Assembly: GCA_002718395.1 (NCBI GenBank)
Contig: PBEG01000016.1
Location: forward strand, 1,003-65,002
Direction of reading: 5' to 3'
From: Chloroflexota bacterium
Lineage (GTDB): Bacteria; Chloroflexota; Dehalococcoidia; UBA2979
DNA length: 64,000 bases
The stretch's first letter is position 1; each line of letters starts with the position of its first letter. The notes below the pieces were generated by a model, which was not told the DNA's origin, made no database searches, and saw nothing but the letters and a program-made list of their open reading frames with translations. Positions 5,134 to 45,285 of the stretch are shown here, piece by piece. Both the position numbers and the translations under genes were made by a program.

Positions 5134-6144
5134 TTATATAGAGTAATAATCTCTATACCAATTTACAAAATTCTTCACTCCTTCCTCAATCGTTATTTTA
5201 GGTCTATATTTTGTTACCTCAAAAAGTCTTTCTGTATCAGCATGAGTAGTTAAAACATCGCCTGGCTGCATGGGTTGAAACTCTTTTTTTGCCTTGATAG
5301 ATAAATGTCTTTCCAATGTTGAGATAAAATCTAATAAACTAACTGGTCTACCATTTCCAATATTATATATAGAATATGGTGCAATTTTACTGCATGAAGG
5401 ATCTAGTTCATTATCCGAGCTAACGCTGCTTTTTTTGGGAAGTATTTCTTGTATTCTTACAATCCCCTCTACAATATCATCAATGTAGGTAAAGTCTCTC
5501 AACATATCACCATTGTTATTGATCTTTATTGGATCCCCATTGATTATAGATCGTGTAAATTTAAATAATGCCATATCTGGCCTACCCCATGGCCCATAAA
5601 CTGTGAAAAATCTTAAGCCAGTACATGGAATATTATAGAGATGTGAATATGCGTGTGACATCAACTCATTAGATTTCTTAGTCGCAGCATAGAGAGATAC
5701 AGGATGATCTGTGGAACTTGATTCAGATAGAACTTCATAGTCCTGAAATCCGTAAATGGAGCTTGATGAGGCATACACTAAATGATCAACATCAATAGAT
5801 CGACAAGCCTCCAGGACAGATAAATGACCAACCAAATTAGATTGTCCATAAATATAAGGATGATCGATTGAATATCTCACTCCAGGCTGAGCAGCAAGAT
5901 GAATCACACGATCAATTGCGCCCTCTTTCATTATTTGTGTAAGTTTATCAGTATCAATGATATCCATTAATTTAAATTGATAATTTCTATAATTCTCTAA
6001 AATGGAAAGTCTGTCTTTTTTTAACTTAACACTGTAATAATCACTGAGGTTGTCAATTCCAATTACGTCATACCCTAGCTCACATAATCTCATTGCAGTA
6101 TGAAAACCAATAAATCCTGCAGAACCTGTTAAGAGAAATTTCAT
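5134..6144 (-). CDS. NAD-dependent epimerase, probable UDP-glucuronate 4-epimerase
   Basis: Extended SDR (TGSAGFIGFH, YAATKKSNE YxxxK). Typical pairing with ugd in polysaccharide loci. Confidence 0.65.
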   Translation of the reverse strand: MKFLLTGSAGFIGFHTAMRLCELGYDVIGIDNLSDYYSVKLKKDRLSILENYRNYQFKLMDIIDTDKLTQIMKEGAIDRVIHLAAQPGVRYSIDHPYIYGQSNLVGHLSVLEACRSIDVDHLVYASSSSIYGFQDYEVLSESSSTDHPVSLYAATKKSNELMSHAYSHLYNIPCTGLRFFTVYGPWGRPDMALFKFTRSIINGDPIKINNNGDMLRDFTYIDDIVEGIVRIQEILPKKSSVSSDNELDPSCSKIAPYSIYNIGNGRPVSLLDFISTLERHLSIKAKKEFQPMQPGDVLTTHADTERLFEVTKYRPKITIEEGVKNFVNWYRDYYSI

Positions 6145-6171
6145 AAGAACTAGATTACCAGATAATAATCC

Positions 6172-8148
6172 TTAAATTTTCTCTGCTACAGAAACTCTAA
6201 AACGAAAAGATGGAATAGATCCATCTGGCTTCAATGTGTCATCTATCTCTTGCAGTGAAAATACCAACCGATTTAGGTAGCCATTCTTGTCTTGTTTATT
6301 GATTAACATTGGTAGTGCTGCACATTGATGAGGCTCCCAATTAACAGATATTGAGGAATCCTTGTTTGAAATTAATATTTCACCTCCAGTTACAGGAATT
6401 GCAGTCGTGCTTGAAACAAGGCTAGAAATTGGCTTTGTATGATCAAAATCACCATTAATTCTCAAAACCTCTCTTTGTCTACCTCCGCTTAGATATGAAA
6501 TCTCAATTTCATTTCCCCAGAAATCTGGTAAAAGAGTTAAGTAACCGACTCTCAGAAAATACTTGCCTCTCTTCCAATTTGGGAATTCATAATTGAGAGT
6601 AATCATTGGCTTTTGTCTTGAAATTGACAATCTTTTTTCAATATCTCCTAGAGCTGTATTGTGACTAGTTATTAATGTTATTGAAGATTTATCACTAATT
6701 ATCTCTGGCTCAACAACTTGTAGGTCAGATATTTTCTGGCCCTCAAAAAATCCCTGAGATTGAACGCCTCCAGTATAGAAATCTGCACCCAACAATATTG
6801 AATCGAAATAACCATGTGGCAATGTTCCAAATGCAGGATTATCAAATTTTGAAAACTGTAATTTATTAATAGTTAGGCCTTTTCTTAGGTTAAGGGATGC
6901 AATAACGTCCTTTGTGGATAATTTAAGTATTGTGTTCTCCTCATCAGTCGAATATTCAAAATTACTGTCATGATTTTCACAAGAATCATCGATTTCAGTT
7001 TTCGTATCAGTAGTTTTATCCCTAATTTTTATATTTGAATCAATGTGTTCATTGATCTGATGAATTTGTCCTACCGCTTTGTCCCATCTGTTTTTAGTTA
7101 TATGAGTTCTTAAATCACTCGACCATAAATCACATAGCCGTCTCTTTAAATCTTTGGATGCTCTGAGCTCAGAATCATCCATCATTTTATTAAATATCTG
7201 GTAACACATTGTATTAATCCATACATCATTCCGCCCTGATAGCGCCCAACGTGTAATATTGTATTTGGGCTGTTTCTTTACAGGAGCAGGATTTGCTGAG
7301 CTTACCAATATTCGAGCCTTTGTGTCTTGAGATGCAATATCAGGCATTATCTCTGAAGGAGTTGACCAAGTAATATCTCTATTTTTTGTCAAGTAAATCA
7401 TCAATTCTTTGATCCTATTCCATTCACCATGTGGGTGAATTGTTGACTCTGTATTGAATCGTCCAGGTCTATAATCAAAACATTCAGCATCATTTGTATA
7501 GAAAGGGACAATACCCATTTGAGAAGACTTATATTTATCAAAAAAATCAAGGTAGCTTTCAAAATTAATATCACCATGAGCAAATTGCTGGAGTTTTTGA
7601 AAAATAAATGAATTAGACCATAGAACAGGCATCTCATAGTTTGAAGGACTGAGAGCTTTGTTAGGCATCAGGCCATCCCACTCTTGATCATATTTAAAGG
7701 AAAGCTTTATGTTGCTCTCATCCATGATGAAGGAATCATATCCAACCTCATAAATTACATCTATGATACTACTAGAAAAGGCCATTTCATTGATAAGAGC
7801 AGTTTTAGGTCTTACATTCAGATAACGTTCATAAATTTCTAGACCTAAAAGATGATTCCAGTGATTGACCTCATAAGGAGTTAGAGGTGCGATCATTTGC
7901 ACGTAACCACTTCCAATCAGTTCCACTTTATCTTCATCAATTAATGATGAAAGCTTCTTGATCCAATTGTCATCAATCAAATTTATTCTCTCGAGCGTTT
8001 TTCCACTTGCTTCTATTGAAATCTTTATCCTATCTTCTTCACATAAGTCTAGAAGTGGCCAATAACATTTTTCTATAATAGATTCATGCTCATCTTCCTC
8101 TATTGATGAAAAAGAGAGATTCAAATGAAATGTGGTATACAATCTCAT
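6172..8148 (-). CDS. glycoside hydrolase family 57-like / carbohydrate-deacetylase-fold protein, function unknown (start probably at Met18 at 8148, coupled to the upstream stop)
   Basis: N-terminal TTFHLNLSFSS..EDE and later acidic motifs (ALINEMAF, YTNDAECFDYRPG) resemble the GH57 conserved regions. C-terminal half is beta-rich. Assignment by eye only. Confidence 0.35.
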   Translation of the reverse strand: MRLYTTFHLNLSFSSIEEDEHESIIEKCYWPLLDLCEEDRIKISIEASGKTLERINLIDDNWIKKLSSLIDEDKVELIGSGYVQMIAPLTPYEVNHWNHLLGLEIYERYLNVRPKTALINEMAFSSSIIDVIYEVGYDSFIMDESNIKLSFKYDQEWDGLMPNKALSPSNYEMPVLWSNSFIFQKLQQFAHGDINFESYLDFFDKYKSSQMGIVPFYTNDAECFDYRPGRFNTESTIHPHGEWNRIKELMIYLTKNRDITWSTPSEIMPDIASQDTKARILVSSANPAPVKKQPKYNITRWALSGRNDVWINTMCYQIFNKMMDDSELRASKDLKRRLCDLWSSDLRTHITKNRWDKAVGQIHQINEHIDSNIKIRDKTTDTKTEIDDSCENHDSNFEYSTDEENTILKLSTKDVIASLNLRKGLTINKLQFSKFDNPAFGTLPHGYFDSILLGADFYTGGVQSQGFFEGQKISDLQVVEPEIISDKSSITLITSHNTALGDIEKRLSISRQKPMITLNYEFPNWKRGKYFLRVGYLTLLPDFWGNEIEISYLSGGRQREVLRINGDFDHTKPISSLVSSTTAIPVTGGEILISNKDSSISVNWEPHQCAALPMLINKQDKNGYLNRLVFSLQEIDDTLKPDGSIPSFRFRVSVAEKI

Positions 8149-8149
8149 T

Positions 8150-9091
8150 TTAATTAAGTAAAGTCTTCCAAGAGCTACCCCAATGCTGATCAGAATCAAT
8201 TTCGCTCTCTAGAATCAAATCCAATGACTCAATAGCTCTAAATAAATTGTTTCTATTGATAAATTTGTAATTTCTGAGACTTATCCAGTTGTCAGGATTC
8301 CTTGTGGCTTTCAAAAGCCATTTAAAATCAGACTCATCATCGTCATAATTGAAAGCCAAAATTACTTTTTTGCCATAATATTCTGCCTCTTGCAGAATAG
8401 TCCCAAATGAGGTGATGATTATAGACGCATTGGCAATTTCAGTTTGCATATCTTCTGAATTAAAAACAAAATCAATTTCAGGGTATTTACTCAATAAATA
8501 ATCTTTTTTGTGCTTATAACCTGGCCCAATAATAATTTTCAATCTATTCATATAGTTTGAGTCATACAACAAATTAAGAACAATACTCGAAATATCGTTT
8601 GGGTCACTACCTCCAAAGGTCAGAAGAATCTTATCGTTAAGCTCTTTTTTGTATAGCTTTGGCTCTTTCAGAACTGAATAATGTTTCCCCCATAAGATTG
8701 AATTTTCTGAAATATAACTTTTCTTTATCTTATCTTTATTAATAAAGAAGGATGGAACTATAACTTCTCCAGAATGAATAGCCCACCTGTCAACCCTATC
8801 AATTATTATGGTATTTTCTTTATTTTTAAAAAAACCATCAATCATATCCATGCAATCGTATTTAGAGTCTACAAAAGCGTAACTGAAATTAAAATCATTA
8901 TGAGTTTGTTGCTTTATTATTTTAAATTTTCTCTTCTTAAGAAATTGACTCTCTATATCGTTTGTGGCCAAAAATATGGATTTATTTTTGAGTCCCATAA
9001 TCTCTATAATGTTAGTGAGTCTATACAAATGACCAAATCCTATTTCAACTCCGCCAGACGCGAAACATAGAATTTTCTCACTATGACTCAC
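8150..9091 (-). CDS. pseG: UDP-2,4-diacetamido-2,4,6-trideoxy-beta-L-altropyranose hydrolase-like (PseG family GT-B)
   Basis: N-terminal GGVEIGFGHLYRL (the GxGHxxR signature of PseG), ~310 aa. Adjacent to a NeuB-family gene. Confidence 0.6.
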   Translation of the reverse strand: MSHSEKILCFASGGVEIGFGHLYRLTNIIEIMGLKNKSIFLATNDIESQFLKKRKFKIIKQQTHNDFNFSYAFVDSKYDCMDMIDGFFKNKENTIIIDRVDRWAIHSGEVIVPSFFINKDKIKKSYISENSILWGKHYSVLKEPKLYKKELNDKILLTFGGSDPNDISSIVLNLLYDSNYMNRLKIIIGPGYKHKKDYLLSKYPEIDFVFNSEDMQTEIANASIIITSFGTILQEAEYYGKKVILAFNYDDDESDFKWLLKATRNPDNWISLRNYKFINRNNLFRAIESLDLILESEIDSDQHWGSSWKTLLN

Positions 9092-9097
9092 TTGAAC

Positions 9098-9946
9098 TTA
9101 GAAACTACTTCTTATTTTCTTCATAGGGCGAAGTCCATCAGTTGGGTCAGCCCTCCAATCTCGGTCAGCTATTTCTGAGTCTGATGGCTCCTTATTACCA
9201 TGACCATCAGCATCTATACCTTCACGGACTTCCTTAATGACAACCTCAATCTCCTTTGGCAACCAACAATGTCCCGATGAGAACTCTTCGCCTTTCTTAT
9301 CTAGATCGAGATGAAACTCTATTATGCTCGCATTCCATTTATGGATTGCTCTGTGAATCACACTAGGGCTGACTGTATGATCAGACCACCCAACATTACA
9401 TCCTGTTTTATCTCTTATCGTTTGTATTGCAGATAAATTGGCGTCTCTCAGCGGTGTCGGATATGAGGAATTGCAATGTAGAAATGTCAAGTCAGTACAA
9501 TTATTCTTATGTGCAATTTCTTTGGCATGTAATATTTCAGGAATTGTTGCCATACCTGTAGAAAGTATTAGGGGTTTCGAAGTATTTGAGCATTTCTCAA
9601 TTAATGAATCCCATAGTAATTCATAAGAAGCGATCTTAAGGAAATCTACATAGTCATCAAGAAGATCGACGGCGCTAAGGTAAAAAGGTGTGCAAGAAAA
9701 CTTTATACCTCTAGACTTAGAATGCTCATAAAGCAATGGGATATATTCCTCTGGTAACTCCCATGACTTTCTATCTCTATGATTTTTAGACTTTTCTAGA
9801 ATCTCACTTGAAAATAGTTGCTCTATTCTAAATAACTGAAATTTTACAGCATCACAGCCAATATCAGATGCACAATCAATAAATTCTTTGCATCTTTCCA
9901 GGTCATTACCATGATTACTTGATACCTCTGCAATGAAATATGTCAT
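9098..9946 (-). CDS. NeuB/PseI-family nonulosonic acid synthase lacking the C-terminal SAF domain
   Basis: FIAEVSSNHGNDLERCKEFI...AVKFQLF TIM-barrel signature of N-acylneuraminate/pseudaminate synthases. Ends after the linker (GHGNKEPSDSE) at 282 aa versus ~340 aa for PseI. Confidence 0.65.
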   Translation of the reverse strand: MTYFIAEVSSNHGNDLERCKEFIDCASDIGCDAVKFQLFRIEQLFSSEILEKSKNHRDRKSWELPEEYIPLLYEHSKSRGIKFSCTPFYLSAVDLLDDYVDFLKIASYELLWDSLIEKCSNTSKPLILSTGMATIPEILHAKEIAHKNNCTDLTFLHCNSSYPTPLRDANLSAIQTIRDKTGCNVGWSDHTVSPSVIHRAIHKWNASIIEFHLDLDKKGEEFSSGHCWLPKEIEVVIKEVREGIDADGHGNKEPSDSEIADRDWRADPTDGLRPMKKIRSSF

Positions 9947-9947
9947 A

Positions 9948-11111
9948 TTATTCCACTTCTATAGTAATAGTATTTAGAGCTAGTTGACAACGATGCTCGG
10001 CCTCACTTCGATCTTTTCCTGAAACTATAACATAACCGAATCTATCTGGATGCATCCTGATAGATGGTTGAATCTCACCTTTATCTCTAAAAAAACCAAA
10101 CTTCACAAAGCCAGGAACATTTTCTAATTCTTCTATTCCATGAATATCCTTGATGACACCTTCTTTTGGAAACCAATATCTTATTGAAGTAGCATTTCTT
10201 TTCTTAGGCTTAAGGTCTATCTCATCAATAGGAATAGAAAGTGAATGATGCATAACAATCTCTACTAAATTCACTCCCGTTGCTATTGGAACTTGATGAG
10301 TAGCAAACCAACCTCCAGATAGTCTTGCAGCAATTTCTATTACTTTTATATTTCCATTGTTATCAATAACAATGTCCCCTTTAATGATGCCCTCACTGAT
10401 ACCAATAGCCAAAGCACTATTCAGAATTATATGATCAATTTCTTCAAGTTCAGATTTACTGAGTTCTGGAGGAATATCACCACCGTCTTCGATAATATAT
10501 GGTTTGAATTGTGTCAATCTAGAATAGTTTCTTTCTGCAATTGCAGGGGTAAAACATCTTCCATCTAAAATAAAGCTCTCGGTGGAATATTGCTTACCCT
10601 CAATATATTCTTCCAAAATCAGTTTTCCTGAATCTCCCCATCTTATAGATTCTTCGAAAGCCCAATATAAATCTATATCCTGATCCAGGATTAAAACCCC
10701 TCTCGCGCCTCTTCCATCGTTTGGCTTTAAAACGAATCTTTCGTTATCACTATCCTCAATTATTCGTTTTAAATCCTGAAATGATGACAATTCATAATGG
10801 GCCGGACAGGGAATCTGATTTGCGGTGAAAGACTTTTTCATTAGTAGTTTATCTGATGCTATTTTCGCTGATTCAATCGATATTGATGGCAAACCAAGCT
10901 CAGTGGCTGTAAGTGCAACAGTGTATGGCACATCATTTGCAATTGTCATAACTCCGTCAATTGGGATTTTCTTAGAAAAGTTTTTTGACATTCTTGCTGT
11001 TTTCTCGGCATCTCTAGTAGATACTTTTATGAAATAGTCAGATAAATTAACAGAAGGAGCATTTGGATCTAAATCTGTAGCAATTGTTCTGATACCTTTT
11101 TGTTTTGCCAA
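9948..11111 (-). CDS. ATP-grasp domain ligase (carboxylate-amine ligase family)
   Basis: Pre-ATP-grasp plus ATP-grasp motifs (RFVLKPNDGRGARGVLIL, LILEEYIEGKQYSTESF, IEIAARLSGG). Confidence 0.65.
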   Translation of the reverse strand: MAKQKGIRTIATDLDPNAPSVNLSDYFIKVSTRDAEKTARMSKNFSKKIPIDGVMTIANDVPYTVALTATELGLPSISIESAKIASDKLLMKKSFTANQIPCPAHYELSSFQDLKRIIEDSDNERFVLKPNDGRGARGVLILDQDIDLYWAFEESIRWGDSGKLILEEYIEGKQYSTESFILDGRCFTPAIAERNYSRLTQFKPYIIEDGGDIPPELSKSELEEIDHIILNSALAIGISEGIIKGDIVIDNNGNIKVIEIAARLSGGWFATHQVPIATGVNLVEIVMHHSLSIPIDEIDLKPKKRNATSIRYWFPKEGVIKDIHGIEELENVPGFVKFGFFRDKGEIQPSIRMHPDRFGYVIVSGKDRSEAEHRCQLALNTITIEVE

Positions 11112-11163
11112 TTTATAGGCAGGGGCTTGTTCAGCTCCTGCGCCAACTATTAATAAATGCTTT

Positions 11164-11892
11164 TCAGGAGAAATAAATGCCTCCGTTTATATTAAGGGTT
11201 TGCCCTGTAATATAATTTCCATCTTCAGCTAGAAAGAATGCAAGTGAAGCAACATCAGAAGGGTCGCCCAATCTTCCAAGAGGAATCTGACTTTCTAACT
11301 CTTCCAGATTAATCGACGATAGTTCATCTTTCGTCATATCGGTTTCGATTAATCCTGGCGCTATTGCATTTGTACAAATTCCTTCATTTGAGAATTTTTT
11401 AGCCATAGATTTTGTTAGATTAATTAGAGCTGCCTTGGATGCTGCATAATGTACCTGATGAATCCCGCCCCATTGGCCACCCAATGATGAAATATTAATG
11501 ATTTTTCCAAATTTATTTTCTCTCATCTTGATAACAGCTCTCTGTGAACAACGGAAAGCACCAATAAGATTTACCGATAGCATGTTAAACCAATCGTCAT
11601 CCTCTAACTCTTCAAATAATTTGACTTGAGAAATCCCAGCATTATTTATAAGAATATCAATAGAACCATGGCTAGATTCAATTTCATCAAATGCGGCATT
11701 TACTGAAAGCGTAGAGCTAACATCAATATTAATTGCATATGCATTACCTGTGGATGCTAATTCTTCTGCTTCAATTTTTTTATCCTTGAAACCTATGAAG
11801 ACTTCGAAGTCTGATTGGATAAATTTTTCAGCAATTGATTTACCGATTCCTCTGCTAGCACCCGTAATAAAAACTCTCTTTTTTCTATTCAT
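11164..11892 (-). CDS. short-chain dehydrogenase/reductase (FabG-like 3-oxoacyl reductase family)
   Basis: TGASRGIGKSIA cofactor motif, NNAG, YAASKAAL catalytic YxxxK. 242 aa. Confidence 0.8.
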   Translation of the reverse strand: MNRKKRVFITGASRGIGKSIAEKFIQSDFEVFIGFKDKKIEAEELASTGNAYAINIDVSSTLSVNAAFDEIESSHGSIDILINNAGISQVKLFEELEDDDWFNMLSVNLIGAFRCSQRAVIKMRENKFGKIINISSLGGQWGGIHQVHYAASKAALINLTKSMAKKFSNEGICTNAIAPGLIETDMTKDELSSINLEELESQIPLGRLGDPSDVASLAFFLAEDGNYITGQTLNINGGIYFS

Positions 11893-11898
11893 TCAAAC

Positions 11899-13617
11899 TT
11901 ATCCCTTCCACATATCATCCATAGTTTGTCCAGCAAGTAGCATTGGTCTTACATCTGCTGATGGATCGATCATCACATCCAATAAGGCAGGACCTTTTTG
12001 TTCCCAAATCCATTCTATTTTTGCTCTAATATCTTCTTTTTCACTAAGCTTATTTGAATTGATCCCAAATCCATTAGCAATTGATCTAAAGTCTTGGGGC
12101 CTGAAGTCACCTGTTGTCGGATCTACACCCCAAGTTATGAGTTGAAATTGAGAAACTATTCCAAGCCTTGAGTTATTGAATACAATAATTTTGATATCCA
12201 GGTCTGAGTCTTTCAAGAATGCTAACTCCTGAATATTCATAAGCGCAGAACCATCGCCAACAATGCATACAATTCTTTTCTCTGGTGATGCCATTGCTGC
12301 TCCGATTGAGGAAGGAATATCATATCCCATTGTTCCATGACCAGCCGAGGTTAAAAATGTGTTAGTTTTAGGCTTAAAAGGGAGATGCCTTGCTGCCCAA
12401 TGTTGATGGCAACCCACACCAGTTACTAGAATTGTTTCATCTTGAGAAATCAGGCCGGCCAGTTTATCTAAAAAGTCTCTAGGTTGTATATTATTAGATC
12501 TCTTCATAGGGATATCATCCAGTCTTTGTTCAATCATGTTTTCCATGCTTGACTTCCAGCTCGAGTCTGAGAAAGACTTATTATGTTCCAAACTCTTTTG
12601 CAAGCCTCTACAAAAAAGATTTACGTCCACATTAATTGGCCAGTCTATGTGTACTCTAGAGTTATCTAATTCTTTTTGATCATTGTTAACAGATATAACT
12701 TTTGCATTACTAGCAAAACTTGTAACCTCTGTACCAGTTTGGCGAACATCAAGCCTGGAACCTAATACTAAAAGAAGGTCACAATTAGCTATAGCAAGGT
12801 TGGCAACCTGATGGCCTGTATGACCTATATATCCTAAAAATCGCTCACTAGATGAATCAAAACTCCCAAGACCTAAGAAGCTTGATACCACTAAAGCATC
12901 CATATTCTTTGAGATAGTCTCTAGCAAACTTGAATCATGAAGAGATAAAGAGCCGTGACCTAACAATATAACTGATCTTTTTGACTCTGATATAGCCTCG
13001 AGTATGCCCTCTTCAATAATTATTTCCTCGCTTTCTGATAGTTTCTCCAGATTTGAGTTGCTTCTTGTTGGTAAATCAAATGAAGAAATTTCTGTTCTTT
13101 GAACGTCCATTGGAAAGTCTAAAACGCAAGGGCCCATTCTACCTTTCACTGTGATATCAAATGCATCTGGGACCTCTGAGAAAACATCATCAGTAGTTAA
13201 AAGACAACTAGATTTCTTTGAAATTGGCTTGGTAATATCAACTGTTGGAGTTTCTTGAAAGCCTCTCTGCCTCACTTCTAGCCGAGTAGTTAAGTCTGCA
13301 GTCCCAATTTGCCCGGTAATAACGATTAATGGAGTTGAGTCATAATATGCATCAGCAAGAGGTGAAATTACATTTGTCACGCCAGGTCCGGATGTAACCA
13401 TAACAACTTGCGGCTTATTTCTTATTCTAGAATATGCCAACGCAGCATAAGCAGAGCCTTGCTCATTGTTAAAGCATTCAATCTTAATATTAAATTTTAT
13501 ACATGCATTAATAAGAGGTGCTATTGTTCCTCCTGGATACACAAATACTCTATCTATGCCTTCCATTACGAATTTATATGCTACCCAATCAGCAATATTA
13601 TCAATATTTCTCTTCAT
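11899..13617 (-). CDS. thiamine-pyrophosphate enzyme, acetolactate synthase large-subunit-like
   Basis: Three-domain ALS architecture, 572 aa. TPP motif IVGDGSALMNIQELAF...N. Pyrimidine-binding domain at the N-terminus. Confidence 0.8.
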   Translation of the reverse strand: MKRNIDNIADWVAYKFVMEGIDRVFVYPGGTIAPLINACIKFNIKIECFNNEQGSAYAALAYSRIRNKPQVVMVTSGPGVTNVISPLADAYYDSTPLIVITGQIGTADLTTRLEVRQRGFQETPTVDITKPISKKSSCLLTTDDVFSEVPDAFDITVKGRMGPCVLDFPMDVQRTEISSFDLPTRSNSNLEKLSESEEIIIEEGILEAISESKRSVILLGHGSLSLHDSSLLETISKNMDALVVSSFLGLGSFDSSSERFLGYIGHTGHQVANLAIANCDLLLVLGSRLDVRQTGTEVTSFASNAKVISVNNDQKELDNSRVHIDWPINVDVNLFCRGLQKSLEHNKSFSDSSWKSSMENMIEQRLDDIPMKRSNNIQPRDFLDKLAGLISQDETILVTGVGCHQHWAARHLPFKPKTNTFLTSAGHGTMGYDIPSSIGAAMASPEKRIVCIVGDGSALMNIQELAFLKDSDLDIKIIVFNNSRLGIVSQFQLITWGVDPTTGDFRPQDFRSIANGFGINSNKLSEKEDIRAKIEWIWEQKGPALLDVMIDPSADVRPMLLAGQTMDDMWKG

Positions 13618-13651
13618 TATTTTTCCTAATATATGCTCAATTTTTCCTAAG

Positions 13652-14755
13652 CTAGGAAGGCTTTTTTCTTGAGCCAGTTAAAAGTAGCATTATTATTAAT
13701 AAAGTAATGTACCCATAAAATAAATTATACTCTTTCAAATTAAAGTGGACTGAAATCATAGCTAGAGTGGCTGTTATCATTGAAATGAAAATAAAAATAA
13801 TTAAAACACTTCTATCAGAAAATCCTGCATTTGAAAGAATATGATGAAAATGTTCTCTATCGGCCAAAAATGGAGATCTTAATGCAATTAATCTTCTAGC
13901 AATTGTCATTAAAGCATCAGTGATGGGAAGAAAAGCAAACCAAATTGCTGATATTGCAGTGATAATTTTTTCTTCTTGAGATAAGAAAATTAAGATCCAT
14001 GCAATTATATGGCCTAGTGCATTTGATCCATGATCTCCAAGAAAGATTTTTCTCTCGACTCCAAAAAAACCTAAATTAAATAGAAGGAAAATAATTAAGC
14101 TTGAGATAATCACTAAACCCATCATGAATATGGTGCCCTGAAAAAAAAGCAGCATAAAAATAGAGGAAACTATAACTATTGCAACTGATGCTGCCAAGCC
14201 GTCTCTTCCATCTAACATGTTAAAAGCATTACATAATCCAACCACACCCAAGATTGTAAAGGGTATGCCGAATCCACCAAGATTAACTATGCCTTGACCA
14301 AATAGATTTCCCAGATCACGAACATATATATCAGTAGTTAAGATTACAATCCAGCTTGCAAGAATTTGTCCTACCAATCTTAATGTCCAAGGTACTTCAA
14401 TTGCCTTAAGCCCGTCTAGTGTCCCTATTATCATAATTGGTAGCAAGGAGGCTATGATATAGATATAGAAAGTATTCACTCCAAAAACAAAAGCGCCATA
14501 AATGATTGAAATAAATAATATTAATCCACCAGTAAGCGGTATCGCCCCTTTATGATCCTTTCTACGACCATCTGCTTCATCTACTAAATTAATACTTTTA
14601 GCTATTGAAGAGGCAATAAATGTAATGACCAATATTCCTATTAAGCCAAGGATAAATGACTGCACTGAAATTAACGGGCCTTCTGAGTATGCGACAATAA
14701 TCACGAGGACATAAATTGATAATACTAAAAAGATACTTAAGTTTTTGAGTATCAA
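13652..14755 (-). CDS. polyprenyl-phosphate HexNAc-1-phosphate transferase (WecA/WbpL/MraY family), initiating glycosyltransferase
   Basis: About 10 TM segments. Motifs NAFNMLDGRDGLAAS, FLGDHGSNALG and REHFHH match the WecA signatures. Confidence 0.85.
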   Translation of the reverse strand: MILKNLSIFLVLSIYVLVIIVAYSEGPLISVQSFILGLIGILVITFIASSIAKSINLVDEADGRRKDHKGAIPLTGGLILFISIIYGAFVFGVNTFYIYIIASLLPIMIIGTLDGLKAIEVPWTLRLVGQILASWIVILTTDIYVRDLGNLFGQGIVNLGGFGIPFTILGVVGLCNAFNMLDGRDGLAASVAIVIVSSIFMLLFFQGTIFMMGLVIISSLIIFLLFNLGFFGVERKIFLGDHGSNALGHIIAWILIFLSQEEKIITAISAIWFAFLPITDALMTIARRLIALRSPFLADREHFHHILSNAGFSDRSVLIIFIFISMITATLAMISVHFNLKEYNLFYGYITLLIIMLLLTGSRKKPS

Positions 14756-14807
14756 GAATTATTCTCCCCAGACTTAATTTATTTCTATAAACTTATTTGA
14801 TAAAAAA

Positions 14808-15581
14808 TTAAGGCTTCCACGGTGCATTTCCACTGCTCCAGAGGCTTTCAAGATAATTTTTGTCCCTCAAAGTATCCATTGGTTGCCAAAAGCCTTGGTG
14901 TTTATATAAGTTGAGTTCTCCAACCTCAACAAGCCTATTTAGGGGCTCATTCTCCCAAGAAGTAGTATCATCATCAATAAAATCAAGACACTTTGGAGAT
15001 AGTACAAAAAATCCACCATTTATAAGGCCGCCATCTCCCTTGGGTTTTTCCATAAACTCAATAACCTTATTCTCATTATGCTTTATAGCACCAAATCTTC
15101 CTGGAGGAGCAACTGCAGTAATAGTTGCTAAATTCCCCTTTTTCTTATGAAAATCAATCAATGAGGTTATATCAATATCACTTAAACCATCTCCATAAGT
15201 GAAACAGAAAAACTCCTCATTCTTTAGATACTTTTTTAGACGCTTCAATCTCCCTCCAGTCATTGTATCTTCACCAGTATCAATCAGGGTTACTTTCCAT
15301 TCTTCGGTATGGCGCTCATGTACCTCCATATTATTATTGACCATATCAAAGGTAACGTCTGAGGTATGAAGAAAGTAGTTAGCGAAATATTCTTTAATTA
15401 CATAACCCTTATACCCACAACAAATTATGAAATCATTCAATCCATATTTTGAGTAGTGTTTCATTAGGTGCCATAGAATAGGTTTTCCTCCTATTTCAAT
15501 CATAGGCTTTGGCTTCAGTGTTGTTTCTTCACTGATCCTAGTACCTAATCCGCCTGCTAATATAACGACCTTCATGCTCAT
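14808..15581 (-). CDS. rfbF: glucose-1-phosphate cytidylyltransferase
   Basis: 257 aa, near-colinear with Salmonella RfbF/DdhA (ILAGGLGTR..KPKPMIEIGGKPILWH..GFWQPMDTLRDK). Confidence 0.9.
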   Translation of the reverse strand: MSMKVVILAGGLGTRISEETTLKPKPMIEIGGKPILWHLMKHYSKYGLNDFIICCGYKGYVIKEYFANYFLHTSDVTFDMVNNNMEVHERHTEEWKVTLIDTGEDTMTGGRLKRLKKYLKNEEFFCFTYGDGLSDIDITSLIDFHKKKGNLATITAVAPPGRFGAIKHNENKVIEFMEKPKGDGGLINGGFFVLSPKCLDFIDDDTTSWENEPLNRLVEVGELNLYKHQGFWQPMDTLRDKNYLESLWSSGNAPWKP

Positions 15582-16565: not shown

Positions 16566-17411
16566 TTACGAATTAAGTATTTGATTAAGGTATTTTCTAT
16601 CGCCCCAGAAACTCTTTGGTTCAAATTCTCTATAGGGATATGCTCCTAAATCAAGATCAATTATTTGGCCGCTCTCATTAATCCACTTCTTAACGAGATC
16701 AACAAGCCTTGTTGGCTCCCCCTTACAAATATTTATGAACCCTAGATTAGGTTTCTTGCATATGATCAATTTTGTTAACACCTCTGTTACTTCATCAACT
16801 GATAGATAATCTAATAATTGATCACCATTTGACATTCTAAATATTTTTTCTCTATTTTTAATAGCTTCATGTAATTGATTATATATTGTCGATGATATTT
16901 GACCTTTTCCATATACGTAAAATAATCTGGCCCAAGTTATATTGAAATTTGTCTTTTTCTGTAAAGCTAAAAGCTCCTGACTCAGTCTCTTCTTTGCAAT
17001 ACCATATTTAGTGATCGGTTGAGTTTCATTATTCTCATTAATCATCCCACTACACATTCCATACTCATAGCATGTTCCTAAAACAAAAACATTATTTACA
17101 CCGCGACCAATTATTTCTCTCAGAAAATTGAGGTGTTCTGGGAGATACTCTTTAACATGTCGGTCAGAATTTACGTTAGTTATATCATTCCATGCTAAGT
17201 GCACAATGGTATCGTAATCATTAGAAATCTCATCGGGCAAAGAATCTTTTCCGCCAATTTCATATTCCTTAATTAACAGTTGCTTATTATGACCTGTACT
17301 AATGCCTTTCTTTGATCTCACGAGAGATAGGACTTCTGTGTCTGATTTCAATAAGGATTCAGTCAAATATTTGCCTAAAAAACCAGTTCCACCTGTAAGA
17401 ATTACTCTCAC
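16566..17411 (-). CDS. NAD(P)-dependent sugar reductase/epimerase (short SDR, CDP-sugar 4-reductase-like). Start GTG at 17411 overlapping the upstream TGA (GTGA)
   Basis: TGGTGFLGK Rossmann motif immediately after the GTG. YGIAK YxxxK. ~280 aa, like the RfbS/Prt class. The ORF-track start at 17459 overlaps the upstream gene by 52 bp. Confidence 0.6.
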   Translation of the reverse strand: MRVILTGGTGFLGKYLTESLLKSDTEVLSLVRSKKGISTGHNKQLLIKEYEIGGKDSLPDEISNDYDTIVHLAWNDITNVNSDRHVKEYLPEHLNFLREIIGRGVNNVFVLGTCYEYGMCSGMINENNETQPITKYGIAKKRLSQELLALQKKTNFNITWARLFYVYGKGQISSTIYNQLHEAIKNREKIFRMSNGDQLLDYLSVDEVTEVLTKLIICKKPNLGFINICKGEPTRLVDLVKKWINESGQIIDLDLGAYPYREFEPKSFWGDRKYLNQILNS

Positions 17412-18652
17412 TCTAAAATTTCTAGTGTGGGAACAGCTATAACAAATCTTCCTCCCCACTCAGATATATAATTATTTTGATCAATTACCTCTTTTGCAAT
17501 ATTCCAAGGAAATATAAATACATAGTCTGGTTTATCTTTTTTTAAGTAATCAATATCTAGTATAGGTATATGAGAACCAGGCATATACTTACCTTGCTTA
17601 GATTCTGCCATATCACATATATATGGAATTAAATCTGGTTTGACGCCAGCATAATTAAGAAGTGTATTACCTTTTGCAGCAGCGCCATATCCTGCTACTT
17701 TTTTGTTTTCTTTCTTTGCTTGCAATAAGAAGCTCAGAAAAGAATTTTTGATTTCGTCTATTTCACTCTGGAATGTTTTATATGAGTCGAGGTTGTCAAG
17801 ACCCATCTCTTTTTCTTCATTAAGAATTTTATCAATGTATTCAGCATTATTTTGTATACTTGCGTCTTTCTTACAACCGTATATTCTCAAACTACCACAA
17901 TGTGTGGGAATCTTTTCAACATCATATATCCGCAAACCATGTCTTTCGAAGATATTGATAACTGTAGTTAGAGAATAATATGAAAAATGTTCATGATAGA
18001 GTGAATCAAATTGTTTTTCTCTTAACATATTAACTAAATGAGTAAACTCGATTGTTATTGTTCCATCATCTTTCAAAAGTAGAAAAAGTCCTTTGGTGAA
18101 ACTTTTTATATCAGGTACATGAGCATAAACATTATTTGCAATTATAAGGTCAGCTTTAGATTCCTTAGATACGTCTATTGCAGTTTCCTTCCCAAAAAAC
18201 CTTTCCTCAACCCTTATGCCTTTTGATCGAGCAATTTCAGCAGTAGATTTTGTTGGCTCTATGCCTAAGCAAGGGATTTCTCTTTTAAGGAAGTTCTTCA
18301 AAAGATATCCATCGTTAGATGCAATTTCAACAACAAAGCTATTACTATCAAGAGTTAATCTTTCTATGATTTTATTGGAGTAATCTTCGCAGTGATCGAG
18401 AAAACCTTTAGATGTTGAAGAAAGATAAGCATAGTCTTCATTAAAGATAGTCTCTGGAAGCACAAAATCTTGAGTCTGAACCAGAAAACAAGACTCACAA
18501 ACGTCTACTCTTAATGGAAAATAATGCTCCAACTGATTCAAATCATTTTCAGTCAGATATGCATTAGATGGCGGCGAGAAGCCTAAATCAGCAAAACTTA
18601 TGGATAGTGGATTATCACAGTTTCTGCATTTCATTATTTTGCTCTTAGTCAT
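17408..18652 (-). CDS. NDP-hexose C-methyltransferase (TylC3/NovU family; Zn-ribbon + Methyltransf_13/14-like)
   Basis: N-terminal CxxC...CxxC (CRNCDN...CESC). SAM fold in the middle. C-terminal C-MT domain. ~414 aa. Confidence 0.65.
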   Translation of the reverse strand: MTKSKIMKCRNCDNPLSISFADLGFSPPSNAYLTENDLNQLEHYFPLRVDVCESCFLVQTQDFVLPETIFNEDYAYLSSTSKGFLDHCEDYSNKIIERLTLDSNSFVVEIASNDGYLLKNFLKREIPCLGIEPTKSTAEIARSKGIRVEERFFGKETAIDVSKESKADLIIANNVYAHVPDIKSFTKGLFLLLKDDGTITIEFTHLVNMLREKQFDSLYHEHFSYYSLTTVINIFERHGLRIYDVEKIPTHCGSLRIYGCKKDASIQNNAEYIDKILNEEKEMGLDNLDSYKTFQSEIDEIKNSFLSFLLQAKKENKKVAGYGAAAKGNTLLNYAGVKPDLIPYICDMAESKQGKYMPGSHIPILDIDYLKKDKPDYVFIFPWNIAKEVIDQNNYISEWGGRFVIAVPTLEILE

Positions 18653-18676
18653 TCAAAAAAATTTGTGTAATGATTA

Positions 18677-19918
18677 TTATGGCACGTAGTGGGGCTCTGG
18701 CAGTGGGTGTAAAAACTTACCGCCTTTTTCTAAATATAATGCTTGTTGCTCAATAATTTCATCGGCAAAATTCCACGCACATAATAATATGACATCAGGT
18801 AAGTCCTCATGAATATGTTCGGTTGGAAAAATAGGAATATGAGTACCAGGAGTTATTTTGCCGTGCTTTAATTCACTCTTATCAACAACATAATCTACAA
18901 CTGAGTTATCAATTTGACAAAATTGCAAAAGACATTGTCCCTTTCCTGAAGCGCCATAGACTGCAATCTTTTTCCCTTGTTGTTTAAGCTCAATGATTTT
19001 CTTGCTTATTGAATCTTTGTGAGCAATAGCTCTATTTGCAAATTCGTTCCATGAAGAAATTTCATATAATCCCAATTCCCTTTCTTCATCAATCAATTGC
19101 TGAACACGATTTGATATTTTCCTTGGTCCGTCTTTATGCTGAAGATAAACTCTGATTGATCCTCCATGAATCCAAATCCTCTCCACATCAAATACTTCCA
19201 TTCCAAATCTTGAATATAATTTACAAAAGCTATCAAGTGAATGATATCCAATATGTTCATGAAAGACCTGGTCATACTGCAGTTCTTCAAACATGGTTTG
19301 TAGATGTGGCACCTCTATGACTGCAAAGCCATCTTGAGAAAGTGTAATGCTTATACCTTCTGCAAATCCATGAAGATCTGCAACATGAGCCATTACATTT
19401 CTTCCGATAACAATATCAAAAGTCCCATGATTATTTAGTATTGATTCTGCGCTCTCTAAATTAAAGAAACCAGCAATAGAATTTATCCCTCGATTATTTG
19501 CTATTTCTACAATATTTTCAGCTGGATCAATTCCGAGTACTTCTGAGCCGTTATCCTTGAAAATAGATAATACGGTACCATCATTACTTGCTACCTCTAG
19601 TACTTTTGGAGCATGTTGATTTTCATTTTCATGATGTGTTTTACGAATGCTGTCATGAAACTCTTTTGCATACTTAATGACAGCATCCGAAAATCCTGTT
19701 GCATAAATATAATCCGAAAATAAATCTCCTGGATCTAGGATTTCATCAATTTGAAGATGATTACATTCTCTGCAAAAACATAGATTCATTGGAAATTTCT
19801 TCTCATTTTCAATTTCATCAATGGAATCAAGAAAACTGTCAGAAAGTGCCATTTCTTTATAATCTAAGATAACCTCAAGAGCGTCAGCACCACAAATTCT
19901 GCAATTATTTATTTTCAT
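18677..19918 (-). CDS. NDP-hexose C-methyltransferase paralog (TylC3/NovU family)
   Basis: Same architecture as the adjacent gene (CRICGAD...CREC, VLEVASNDG, C-terminal domain). ~30% identity to its neighbour by eye. Confidence 0.65.
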   Translation of the reverse strand: MKINNCRICGADALEVILDYKEMALSDSFLDSIDEIENEKKFPMNLCFCRECNHLQIDEILDPGDLFSDYIYATGFSDAVIKYAKEFHDSIRKTHHENENQHAPKVLEVASNDGTVLSIFKDNGSEVLGIDPAENIVEIANNRGINSIAGFFNLESAESILNNHGTFDIVIGRNVMAHVADLHGFAEGISITLSQDGFAVIEVPHLQTMFEELQYDQVFHEHIGYHSLDSFCKLYSRFGMEVFDVERIWIHGGSIRVYLQHKDGPRKISNRVQQLIDEERELGLYEISSWNEFANRAIAHKDSISKKIIELKQQGKKIAVYGASGKGQCLLQFCQIDNSVVDYVVDKSELKHGKITPGTHIPIFPTEHIHEDLPDVILLCAWNFADEIIEQQALYLEKGGKFLHPLPEPHYVP

Positions 19919-42385: not shown

Positions 42386-43066
42386 TTAGAGATTTTGATA
42401 TATTTGTTCCGCTCTTTTCCAATCATCAAGATCATCAATATCAACAACTCTCCAGCTAGGTATCAAAATTACTGTCGCATTAAGATGATAGCCTTTTGAC
42501 TTTTCTATCCAAGTTTTTGGTTTTGCCCAATAAAATTGTCCAGCATCATGAAGTGCAACTGGCAAGTCTTGAGATCTAGATGAGTAATACTCTGGGTAAA
42601 GCATTTTTAATCCTCCGGATTCTAATTTCTCAAAGGATCTAAATATTGGATAATTGAAAGTAGTTGCTGCGAATACATTTTCCCAATCCCCATTCTTAAT
42701 CAATTCATAACCTTGAAGAATATCTTTTGATTGTACTAGGGGTGATGTGGGATAAATGGAACAAACATAATCTAAATCGTACCCAATTCTTATTAACTCA
42801 CTTACGGCATGACCAATAACCTCATGAGTTCCAGTAAAGTCATCCGAAATTTCAGATGGTCTCATGAATGGTACCTCGGCACCATATTTCATCGAAATCT
42901 CTGCTATTTCTTCATCATCTGTAGAAACAATAATCTTATCGAATATACTTAGAGCCCTAGCCACCTCTATCGAATAAGCAATTATTGGCTTTCCCAAAAA
43001 ATTCTTTATATTTTTCCTTGGAATTCTCTTGCTTCCACCTCTAGCAGGGATAATTGCTATATTCAC
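42386..43066 (-). CDS. pseF: acylneuraminate/pseudaminate cytidylyltransferase (CMP-NeuAc synthetase family)
   Basis: IAIIPARGGSKRIPRKN N-terminal signature. 226 aa. Translationally coupled to pseC. Confidence 0.8.
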   Translation of the reverse strand: MNIAIIPARGGSKRIPRKNIKNFLGKPIIAYSIEVARALSIFDKIIVSTDDEEIAEISMKYGAEVPFMRPSEISDDFTGTHEVIGHAVSELIRIGYDLDYVCSIYPTSPLVQSKDILQGYELIKNGDWENVFAATTFNYPIFRSFEKLESGGLKMLYPEYYSSRSQDLPVALHDAGQFYWAKPKTWIEKSKGYHLNATVILIPSWRVVDIDDLDDWKRAEQIYQNL

Positions 43067-44238
43067 AATAATTCTCTTAAAGCCTCAATAACAAATTTCT
43101 GTTCATCAGATGTCATAGTTGGGAACAAAGGAAGCGTTATTACTCTTTGACTATAATCTTCTGCATTCAAACAATACCCCTCCTTAAAACCTAAATCTTT
43201 ATAGAAAGGATGAAGGTGAACTGGCATGTAATGTATATTTACGCCAATACCTCGATCTCTCAATAAGTTGAATAATTCTTCTCTCGATTTATTGGCCTCA
43301 TTCTGATCGACTAGCACAACATATAGATGAAATGCAGATAAATTTTCTCTTCTTACAAATGGTAACTGTAAGGGGAGATCTGATAATTGATTATTATATT
43401 GTTGAGCAAGGAAGTTTCTTTTTTGAACATAATCATCCACTCTTTTCAGCTGACTAAGCCCCAGTGCTGCGTTTAGGTCTGGCATTCTATAATTGAAGCC
43501 CAAAACATGTTGTTCGTAAGACCAAATTGGAGAGTTTGTTTGTAACATTCTATTCTTGTCTCTTGTTATCCCATGAGACCTATATAGTTCCATCTTATCT
43601 CTCAATTTTTTATCATTTGTCAGACCGATACCGCCTTCTGCGGTGGTAATAATTTTTACTGGATGGAAACTAAATATAGTGATATCAGACCAAAGACAAT
43701 TACCAATCTTTTGACCATTCCTACTTGCACCTATGGCATGTGCAGCATCTTCAATGATCTTGATTTCATATTTTTCTGTAAGCTCTCTTATTATCTCTTG
43801 ATCACAAGGCTGCCCTGCAAATGCAACTGTTACAAGAATCTTTGGTAATATCTTTTTCTTTTCAGCAATTTTAAGTCTTCTTTTTAATTGCTCAATATCA
43901 ATATTATATGTGCTCTTATCAATATCTATGAAATCAACTTTAGCGCCACAATATAAAGCACAATTTGCAGAGGCAACAAAGGTATTTGGAACTGTCCATA
44001 GTATATCTTCTGGGCCCAGGTTGAGAGCTAAACATGCCAGATGTAATGAGCTTGTAGCTGAGTTAGATGCAACCGCATATTTAGCATCTACATATTCTGC
44101 TACGCTATCTTCAAAGCTCCCCACTATTGGTCCCTGAGTAATGAAATCAGACTTCAAGACATCTATAACAGATTTAATATCATCTTCAGTTATATCCTGC
44201 CTTCCGTAAGGTATTGGTTGGTGTTTTCTTTTATTCAT
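43063..44238 (-). CDS. pseC: DegT/DnrJ/EryC1-family PLP aminotransferase (UDP-4-keto-6-deoxy-HexNAc 4-aminotransferase)
   Basis: AAT fold type I. Conserved Lys region (FSFHPVKIITTAEGG). Adjacent to pseB. Confidence 0.8.
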   Translation of the reverse strand: MNKRKHQPIPYGRQDITEDDIKSVIDVLKSDFITQGPIVGSFEDSVAEYVDAKYAVASNSATSSLHLACLALNLGPEDILWTVPNTFVASANCALYCGAKVDFIDIDKSTYNIDIEQLKRRLKIAEKKKILPKILVTVAFAGQPCDQEIIRELTEKYEIKIIEDAAHAIGASRNGQKIGNCLWSDITIFSFHPVKIITTAEGGIGLTNDKKLRDKMELYRSHGITRDKNRMLQTNSPIWSYEQHVLGFNYRMPDLNAALGLSQLKRVDDYVQKRNFLAQQYNNQLSDLPLQLPFVRRENLSAFHLYVVLVDQNEANKSREELFNLLRDRGIGVNIHYMPVHLHPFYKDLGFKEGYCLNAEDYSQRVITLPLFPTMTSDEQKFVIEALRELL

Positions 44239-44283: not shown

Positions 44284-45285
44284 CTAGATTTTTCCTATCT
44301 TATCTTTATTCTTTTTTATCCAATCTCTTAATTGATCTACCTTCATCCAGTCTTTGTTTGAATCGGATGTATAGACAAAATCTTTATTTACTTTTTTTCC
44401 ACCTTTAGTATTAGGGGCATCTCCACCCCATTTCCCTATTGAAGGAAGAATCTTATAATAGTCAGTAAACTCATATGTATGATCAGAATCTTCAAATCCA
44501 ATCATCTGCTCATGAACTTTCTCACCAGGTCTTATGCCAATTATCTTGTGAGGAAGTCCAGGTGCAATTGCCTCAGCAATTTCAGTTACCTTCATCGAAG
44601 GTATTTTTTTAACAAATATTTCTCCTCCTGCCATTTCGTCAAATGCTTTCCAAACTAAGTCCACTCCTTGCTCAAGAGTGATCATAAATCGAGTCATTCT
44701 TATATCAGTTATTGGTATTTCCTCTGAAGACTCTGCTAGATTCATGAAGAATGGAATGATAGAACCTCTTGATCCAAGTACATTCCCATATCTCACAACT
44801 CCAAATCTTGTATTATTCGCACCTGCATAATTGTTGCCTGCAATAAATAATTTATCTGATGCTAGCTTTGTCGCTCCATAAAGATTTACAGGATTGCTAG
44901 CCTTATCTGTCGAAAGTGCTACGACTCTTTTAACCTTCTTATCAATGGCTGCATCGATTAAATTCATTGCACCATGAATATTGGTTTTCACACATTCAAA
45001 TGGATTATATTCTGCAGTTGGAACAATCTTTGTAGCAGCCGCATGAACCACGAAATCTATATCGTCGAGTGCTCTGCTGAGTCTCTCTTTATCTCTAACG
45101 TCTCCAATGAAGAATCTAACTCTTTTATCATCTTGATATAACTTTGCCATTTCCCATTGCTTCATTTCATCTCGTGAATATATAACTAAGCGTGATGGAT
45201 TATATTTCTGGAGTGTCATTGGAACAAATGTATGTCCAAATGAACCTGTTCCACCTGTTATAAGGATATTTGAATTTTCTAACAT
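44284..45285 (-). CDS. pseB: UDP-N-acetylglucosamine 4,6-dehydratase (inverting), PseB/FlaA1 family
   Basis: ILITGGTGSFG, YSRDEMKQWEMA, GATKLASDKLF match PseB. 333 aa. Confidence 0.85.
   Translation of the reverse strand: MLENSNILITGGTGSFGHTFVPMTLQKYNPSRLVIYSRDEMKQWEMAKLYQDDKRVRFFIGDVRDKERLSRALDDIDFVVHAAATKIVPTAEYNPFECVKTNIHGAMNLIDAAIDKKVKRVVALSTDKASNPVNLYGATKLASDKLFIAGNNYAGANNTRFGVVRYGNVLGSRGSIIPFFMNLAESSEEIPITDIRMTRFMITLEQGVDLVWKAFDEMAGGEIFVKKIPSMKVTEIAEAIAPGLPHKIIGIRPGEKVHEQMIGFEDSDHTYEFTDYYKILPSIGKWGGDAPNTKGGKKVNKDFVYTSDSNKDWMKVDQLRDWIKKNKDKIGKI

Follow-up and report, generated by a model that had tools for sequence, protein, structure and literature searches.

The window analysed here, a stretch of 64,000 nucleotides from a Chloroflexota bacterium (GenBank assembly GCA_002718395.1, contig PBEG01000016.1, positions 1,003 to 65,002 of the forward strand), carries on its minus strand a tight block of six genes encoding a thiamine diphosphate (ThDP) enzyme, a FabG-like reductase, an ATP-grasp ligase, a NeuB-family synthase, a PseG-like protein and a GH57-like protein. 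The fourth of these genes (9098..9946, minus strand) was assigned, from its Pfam NeuB domain and a fold match, to an SfmA-like nonulosonate synthase without the C-terminal SAF (antifreeze-like) domain, and is referred to below as NeuBs. Its open reading frame (ORF) runs from an ATG start to a TAA stop and encodes 282 amino acids; the upstream ATP-grasp gene stops 1 nt ahead of the NeuBs ATG and the PseG-like gene begins at a GTG at 9091, 6 nt past the NeuBs stop. An earlier inspection of the letters by themselves (the sequence-only reading) had described the gene as a NeuB-family synthase with a complete TIM barrel, truncated before the SAF domain, and had left it between a naturally SAF-less functional enzyme and a Pse pathway that is either incomplete or served by a synthase encoded elsewhere.

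The Pfam NeuB profile (PF03102) matched residues 23-251 of NeuBs with 192.5 bits against a gathering cutoff of 22.1 and was covered from position 2 to position 240 of 241, which bears out the complete barrel. The NCBIfam models for PseI (TIGR03586; 176.8 bits, cutoff 340.25) and NeuB_NnaB (TIGR03569; 173.7 bits, cutoff 399.65) were aligned over profile positions 2-275 of 327 and 1-273 of 329 only; because both models align through no more than their N-terminal ~275 of ~328 positions, it is the SAF part that is missing. Pfam and NCBIfam thus show a whole barrel in NeuBs, and neither these searches nor tblastn gave a SAF domain. As had been stated before, neither a separate SAF ORF nor a second NeuB was seen in the window: Pfam scans of its roughly 57 ORFs of at least 120 amino acids found no other NeuB or SAF domain, and tblastn of the whole window with three queries from related loci (a pair of SAF domains and a complete SAF-containing NeuB) returned only 9296-9943, every SAF hit having E >= 1. 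A frameshifted SAF remnant downstream, the possibility raised by the sequence-only reading, was searched for in all frames and not found; since the gap to the next gene is 6 nt there is no room for one, and this candidate was ruled out by the gap together with the negative SAF tblastn. A scan of 5900-15000 for promoters and terminators gave counts equal to shuffled expectation.

The same short form recurs in other genomes. An identical 282-residue protein with the same neighbouring genes was found on 17 contigs, which derive from independent marine metagenomes, and a search of 5.8 billion proteins returned 7250 homologues, the top 120 of which (62-87% identity) were all 281-295 amino acids long and contained PF03102 alone. 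An exhaustive search of 50%-identity cluster representatives gave 400 at E <= 1e-30, and 124 of the best 150 were 255-310 amino acids in length and aligned to NeuBs from about residue 1 to about residue 280. Homologues are carried by at least 575 GTDB species genomes. The best 80 genome loci, at 57-65% identity, come from Alpha-, Beta-, Gamma-, Delta- and Epsilonproteobacteria, Chlorobi, Bacteroidota, Verrucomicrobia, Nitrospinota, Acidobacteria, Gemmatimonadota, Aquificales and Firmicutes. The label 'truncated' does not survive an identical ORF on 17 contigs and 124 equally short proteins among 150. NeuBs has the features by which the SAF-less NeuB clade is recognised, namely a single-domain barrel of ~260-300 amino acids whose best structural match is itself SAF-less. 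Judged by sequence conservation, it belongs to a large conserved family without the C-terminal cap domain, and is not a broken gene; across phyla the SAF-less gene is, on the same evidence, under strong purifying selection.

Residue equivalences were taken from a HMMER alignment of the family profile to Neisseria meningitidis NeuB (1XUU), the residues of NeuBs being given first: E7=E25, K35=K53, Q37=Q55, F88=F112, K104=K129, S107=S132, E109=E134, Y162=Y186, S188=S213, H190=H215, E210=E234 and H212=H236. The two histidine metal ligands, the catalytic glutamate and the lysines that bind phosphoenolpyruvate (PEP) in the meningococcal enzyme were all matched in NeuBs. Among the 124 short representatives, K35, Q37, K104, Y162, H190, E210 and H212 are kept in 97-98% (H190 in 98%, H212 in 97%), and two of the glutamates vary, E7 being Glu in 67% and Asp in 30% and E109 being Glu in 46% and Asp in 33%. 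At the sugar-contact positions, N184 of the meningococcal protein is replaced by Ser160, as in Campylobacter jejuni PseI ('CTSAYP'), and a second, family-specific motif, H226-C227-W228 (93%, 79% and 93% of representatives), stands where the region of NeuB D247 lies; as G-H-C-W it is invariant in close NeuBs homologues. In canonical synthases the partner subunit normally contacts the substrate through its SAF arginine, and the counterpart of that arginine (R314 of N. meningitidis NeuB) is absent from NeuBs.

Downstream of the barrel lies a conserved C-terminal tail (residues 252-282; 9101..9193, minus strand) that reads W264-R265-A-D267-P268-x-D270-G271-L272-R273-P274...R279. Within it E258, D261, W264, R265, D267, P268, D270, G271, L272, R273, P274 and R279 are invariant among 32 close homologues, and across the 124 divergent representatives R273 is kept in 97%, G271 in 95%, and R265 and D270 each in 87%. 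By these alignments the R-x-D-P-x-D-G-L-R-P motif is as strongly conserved as the metal ligands and is not a leftover linker; the description of the protein as ending right after the inter-domain linker has therefore to be given up, residues 252-282 being a strongly conserved motif of the family. In an AlphaFold (AF2) model of the monomer, the predicted local distance difference test (pLDDT) score was 91.2 and the predicted template modelling score 0.86. Foldseek placed 6NCS chain A first (template modelling (TM) scores 0.80/0.79, 34% identity), with 8H2C, the PseI of C. jejuni, and then N. meningitidis NeuB as the next matches.

The genes surrounding NeuBs in the block, all on the minus strand, were assigned as follows. 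An acetolactate-synthase-like ThDP enzyme, SfmB-like, with Pfam TPP_enzyme_N, _M and _C domains (11899..13617), is followed by an SfmC-like, FabG-like short-chain reductase (11164..11892; Pfam adh_short_C2, 192 bits) and by an SfmE-like ATP-grasp amide ligase of the L-amino-acid-ligase type (9948..11111; Pfam LAL_C2, ATP-grasp_3/4). Directly downstream of NeuBs is a PseG-like GT-B protein, called C1 in the neighbour counts below (8150..9091), which scored below cutoff with the NCBIfam PseG model (61 bits, cutoff 153.55), had no Pfam hit and left a sequence search of the PDB essentially empty. Its AF2 model (pLDDT 85) found C. jejuni PseG as the top fold matches (3hbn and 3hbm, TM 0.65/0.71). 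A loop, G18-x-G20-H21-x-x-R24, is invariant among its homologues and presumably resembles the PseG loop that carries the catalytic histidine, a likeness we take as a lead. A word-based search returned 11 homologues of this protein (7250 for NeuBs), the most distant of them named SpsG; the PseG-like partner diverges far faster than NeuBs though it nearly always adjoins it. From its modelled fold and its position, it is probably a nucleotide-sugar hydrolase and the near-universal downstream partner of NeuBs. The last cassette gene (6172..8148) encodes a GH57-like protein of ~660-675 amino acids (Pfam Glyco_hydro_57, 69 bits, residues 29-290); the ATG at 8148 is a likelier start than the listed TTG at 8199, which overlaps the PseG-like gene. 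This protein is weakly similar to the 4-alpha-glucanotransferase 1K1W and is otherwise near nothing in a PDB sequence search.

Gene context was examined by clustering the ORFs of the best 80 genome loci without prior labels, neighbours being counted in the 64 loci longer than 12 kb. The most constant neighbour of NeuBs was the PseG-like C1 (51 of 64), followed by ATP-grasp proteins (44), the GH57-like protein, usually as last gene of the cassette (41), a FabG-like reductase (38), an acetolactate-synthase-like ThDP enzyme or, in the same position, a split transketolase (37), an S-adenosylmethionine (SAM) methyltransferase (35), PseC (32) and PseB (30). C1 lies directly downstream of NeuBs in at least 38 of the 73 loci that leave room for it, and PseC directly upstream in 14 loci. 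Another NeuB within 10 kb was present in 2 of the 80 loci only, SAF-containing in both, and 78 were without. In these two loci the SAF-containing NeuB (28-29% identical) stands directly beside the SAF-less one (L025, 7602-8711, a Betaproteobacterium; L039, 8913-9983, a Gammaproteobacterium).

The same six genes in the same order, at 37-64% identity, were found in a metagenome-assembled genome (MAG) of Desulfocapsa (L026/L006), in a 'Proteobacteria bacterium' MAG (L007/L009) and on metagenome contigs L005 and L008; in L005-L007 the cassette adjoins fliC, flaG, fliD and fliS. Two SAR86 single-cell genomes (L033, L047) hold a contiguous set in which PseC is followed by PseF, a second ATP-grasp ligase, NeuBs, an ATP-grasp-like gene and C1, and further on by the ThDP enzyme, the short-chain reductase and the first ATP-grasp ligase; the ThDP enzyme, reductase and first ATP-grasp ligase of L047 are 76%, 74% and 72% identical to their counterparts in the window. 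NeuBs sits in these two genomes between the ATP-grasp ligase and the ATP-grasp-like gene that adjoin PseF in the window, and by comparison with this contiguous and similar set, the cluster in the window looks split and rearranged. From these best-matching loci and a GC content of 34%, the genome was judged SAR86-like. In a further group of loci (L010, L015, L018-L020, L028, L037, L045, L061, L062, L081, L083 and L087), a transketolase split into N- and C-terminal halves on two genes (clusters C10 and C8) replaces the acetolactate-synthase-like ThDP enzyme before the FabG-like reductase, which looks like a non-orthologous swap.

Natural fusions were found to join the short synthase to other enzymes. 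NeuBs is fused to a PseG-like protein in P0126, P0128, P0149 and P0195 (~640 amino acids), to an SpsF-type cytidylyltransferase, in either order, in P0122 and P0123, and to a SAM methyltransferase in P0124. These fusions tie the SAF-less synthase to nucleotide-sugar hydrolysis and CMP activation, the flanking steps of a nonulosonate pathway. The fusions listed, which include P0207, also comprise a 963-residue protein in which two SAF-containing NeuB modules are joined to a cytidylyltransferase.

One long polysaccharide island takes up the window from ~4 to ~55 kb. It encodes Wzz, a Wza-like exporter, a Wzy-like protein and an ABC exporter, together with rmlABCD, GDP-sugar genes and heptose-type genes; its neighbours are purD, rho and trx at one end and gshA, yjbH and mdh at the other. 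Some 30 kb from the NeuBs block, three Pse genes on the minus strand score above the NCBIfam equivalog cutoffs: PseB, the UDP-GlcNAc inverting 4,6-dehydratase (44284..45285; TIGR03589, 528.6 bits, cutoff 407.75), the PseC aminotransferase (43063..44238; TIGR03588, 515.7 bits, cutoff 423.5) and PseF, the CMP-pseudaminate synthetase (42386..43066; TIGR03584, 293.8 bits, cutoff 205.7). The earlier statement that pseB, pseC, pseF and pseG are all present accordingly holds for the first three and has to be softened for pseG, for which there is the PseG-like gene at 61 bits against 153.55. Beside PseF lie a second ATP-grasp ligase (41281-42369, minus strand), recognised by Pfam and NCBIfam, and near it a 298-residue ATP-grasp-like protein with no Pfam hit (40388-41284, minus strand). 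Pfam and NCBIfam scans of the window gave neither a PseH-type (GNAT N-acetyltransferase) hit nor a canonical PseI, and no flagellar genes are present in it.

Several other features of the island were recorded, all on the minus strand. The regions 17408-19918 and 21946-24752 hold two tandem nucleoside-diphosphate-sugar C-methyltransferases and a heptose-type module, in which a GmhA-like SIS isomerase and a GHMP kinase are accompanied by a fusion of a nucleotidyltransferase with a HAD phosphatase; taken together, they suggest that the island also makes a second unusual sugar, a branched or methylated heptose or hexose. An NHL-repeat protein is encoded inside the island at 38719-40374, and ORFs without a family were found at 37254-38606 (450 amino acids, with a faint match to 'surface carbohydrate biosynthesis protein'), 35691-36617 (308 amino acids) and 29841-30626 (261 amino acids). 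A NusG/RfaH-like paralogue (51950-52498) lies between the genes for the Wza-like exporter and Wzz at the upstream end of the island, a position consistent with control of operon polarity in a very long minus-strand gene array.

On this evidence NeuBs is most likely a functional, naturally SAF-less, SfmA-like nonulosonate synthase that carries out the PseI-equivalent step of the glycan island, and from the observed domain content, conservation, gene linkage, fusions and fold we infer a substrate, an order of steps and a role for the tail as follows. PseB and PseC would convert UDP-GlcNAc to the UDP-4-amino-6-deoxy-L-AltNAc intermediate. Acylation is assigned to the ATP-grasp ligases because the window has no PseH acetyltransferase; these ligases probably attach an unusual acyl group that the ThDP enzyme and the FabG-like reductase would supply. 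A non-acetyl substituent on the second amino group is suggested by the missing PseH, by the mono-acetylated sugar of Shewanella (see below) and by the constant ATP-grasp, ThDP and reductase neighbours. The PseG-like protein encoded directly downstream of NeuBs would then strip off the nucleotide, NeuBs would condense the free aldose with PEP in its metal-dependent TIM barrel, and PseF would activate the nonulosonate product with CMP. The contact normally provided by the SAF arginine is probably supplied by the conserved R-x-D-P-x-D-G-L-R-P tail, possibly aided by a docked PseG-like partner, a physical complex of the two proteins being proposed because their genes adjoin, are closely spaced and are sometimes fused. 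The Pse-type pathway of the island is probably complete, and the earlier suggestion that it is incomplete sits badly with the hundreds of species in which the same short form lies beside PseB and PseC with no second NeuB nearby. Of the options left by the sequence-only reading, the naturally SAF-less functional synthase is the one favoured; it has behind it the conservation, the crystal structure of a SAF-less homologue, the linkage to Pse genes, the fusions and, by analogy, the genetics of SfmA.

That NeuBs might instead be a recently truncated pseudogene or an artefact of assembly was suggested by its being ~65 residues shorter than textbook NeuB and PseI proteins, but with no SAF remnant in any frame, a next gene 6 nt past the stop, an identical ORF on 17 contigs and thousands of homologues of the same length with a conserved C-terminus, this explanation is exceedingly improbable, and a pseudogene or artefact identity is effectively refuted by the conservation data. 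A canonical SAF-containing pseI elsewhere in the genome could also make the sugar, NeuBs then being a redundant paralogue or one with an accessory role; the view is limited to 64 kb of the genome, and some genomes carry both forms. This we consider quite unlikely, as the SAF-less gene is embedded among PseB, PseC, PseG-like and PseF genes in most related loci, is under purifying selection across phyla and has in Shewanella a counterpart, sfmA, whose deletion alone abolishes glycosylation (PMC3765264). There is somewhat more to be said for a functional NeuBs that joins PEP to a different aldehyde, giving a second ulosonic acid or part of an extra substituent such as the 236-Da moiety of Shewanella. 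Loci L025 and L039 hold the two forms together, the sugar-contact positions are altered (N184 to Ser, the D247 region to the invariant G-H-C-W, R314 absent), and the linkage to ThDP enzymes or transketolases, which build carbonyl compounds extended by two carbons, is constant. Nevertheless it remains an unlikely account, given that in 78 of the 80 loci the next 10 kb hold no further NeuB although PseB and PseC lie directly upstream in many, that the cytidylyltransferase and PseG-like fusions fit a nonulosonate pathway, and that S. oneidensis MR-1 was reported to lack any other PseI-like gene and yet makes a nonulosonic acid (PMC3765264).

Several points weigh against a PseI-equivalent role for NeuBs. 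Canonical PseI needs its SAF arginine, the R322A variant of the Caulobacter enzyme being inactive (PMC7591256), and because that arginine is essential there, the SAF-less clade must recognise its substrate differently. NeuBs misses the PseI and the NeuB equivalog cutoffs alike, with almost the same score for each (176.8 and 173.7 bits), and sugar specificity is therefore not fixed by sequence. The co-occurrence of SAF-containing and SAF-less NeuB in L025 and L039 suggests that the two forms are non-redundant and could mean that they have different jobs. The tail was modelled with moderate confidence only (pLDDT 67-73 in the NeuBs monomer), as expected if it packs on another chain. Orthology of NeuBs to SfmA rests on length, domain content and operon composition, the two having been compared by description, and the literature yielded no assayed enzyme of the SAF-less clade.

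With these points taken into account, the assignment of NeuBs as a functional SAF-less nonulosonate synthase is retained as the most probable. A wider proposal is put forward tentatively, and with less expectation of being right than wrong: the SAF-less clade may represent a widespread alternative Pse-type pathway, spanning at least 575 species and about ten phyla and including abundant marine SAR86-like bacteria, in which the SAF cap is replaced by the tail and/or by a complex with the PseG-like protein that channels a free aldose bearing a bulky non-acetyl N-acyl group made by the ThDP, reductase and ATP-grasp enzymes. For annotation, the consequence is that NeuB proteins of ~280 amino acids should not be called truncated. 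How the sugar is recognised by a NeuB barrel that has no SAF arginine is a question that can now be posed with a specific motif and a candidate partner.

Compared with canonical PseI (C. jejuni NeuB3, PDB ID: 8H2C; Caulobacter NeuB), NeuBs has the same barrel, metal ligands, catalytic Glu and Lys and the serine of C-T-S-A-Y-P, and the pathway neighbours PseB, PseC and PseF in common; identity is ~25-30%, and the C-terminal SAF domain with its essential arginine is found in PseI only. The closest structure is 6NCS, a structural-genomics entry for an 'N-acetylneuraminic acid synthetase' from Leptospira borgpetersenii, which is likewise a SAF-less barrel of ~285 residues and came first for NeuBs in the sequence comparison (E 6e-31, 34% identity) as well as in the fold search (TM 0.80). 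The alignment ends near W264/R265 ('YR' in 6NCS), however, and the 6NCS chain is without D-P-x-D-G-L-R-P. SAF-less NeuB proteins as a phenomenon are already in the literature: in a phylogeny of 13,941 bacterial NeuB sequences the SAF domain was present in only 70%, and whole SAF-less branches came from environmental bacteria, with F288 replaced by Trp (Microb Genom 2021, PMC8208679), a replacement that fits W264 of NeuBs. That phylogeny reported neither a conserved motif in the tail nor a PseG-like partner nor a link to an sfm-type cassette.

The nearest known system is the sfmABCDE cluster of Shewanella oneidensis MR-1, which encodes SfmA (SO_3261), a 290-residue NeuB-domain protein, with an ilvB-like thiamine pyrophosphate enzyme, a FabG-like reductase, a SAM methyltransferase and an ATP-grasp protein (Bubendorfer et al. 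2013, PMC3765264). Deletion of any of sfmA to sfmD led to loss of flagellin modification and motility, and the flagellin glycan consists of a 274-Da mono-acetylated Pse-like sugar with a moiety of 236, 250 or 264 Da; MR-1 has PseB and PseC, and clear orthologues of PseH, PseG, PseI and PseF are absent (PMC3765264). The cluster was known to its authors from one other Shewanella species only (PMC3765264), no follow-up papers on sfmABCDE were found in a literature search beyond the 2013 paper, and no Shewanella is among the best 80 genome loci of NeuBs. NeuBs (282 residues) resembles SfmA (290) in being a short NeuB-only protein encoded beside genes for ThDP, FabG-like reductase and ATP-grasp enzymes in a host that has PseB and PseC, and by the operon description (PMC3765264) four cassette genes of the window correspond to sfmB, sfmC, sfmE and sfmA. 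In contrast to the Shewanella cluster, the cassette of the window has no flagellin genes beside it and forms part of an O-antigen/capsule-type island; its gene order differs, it contains no SfmD-type methyltransferase and a GH57-like gene has been added. The Shewanella sfm-type system would be phylogenetically widespread, and marine plankton would use it in O-antigen/capsule-type islands as well. What appears to be added to the papers cited is the phylogenetic breadth of the sfm-type cassette, its O-antigen/capsule-type use in a SAR86-like marine bacterium, and the tail motif along with the pairing and fusions of the synthase with a PseG-like protein.

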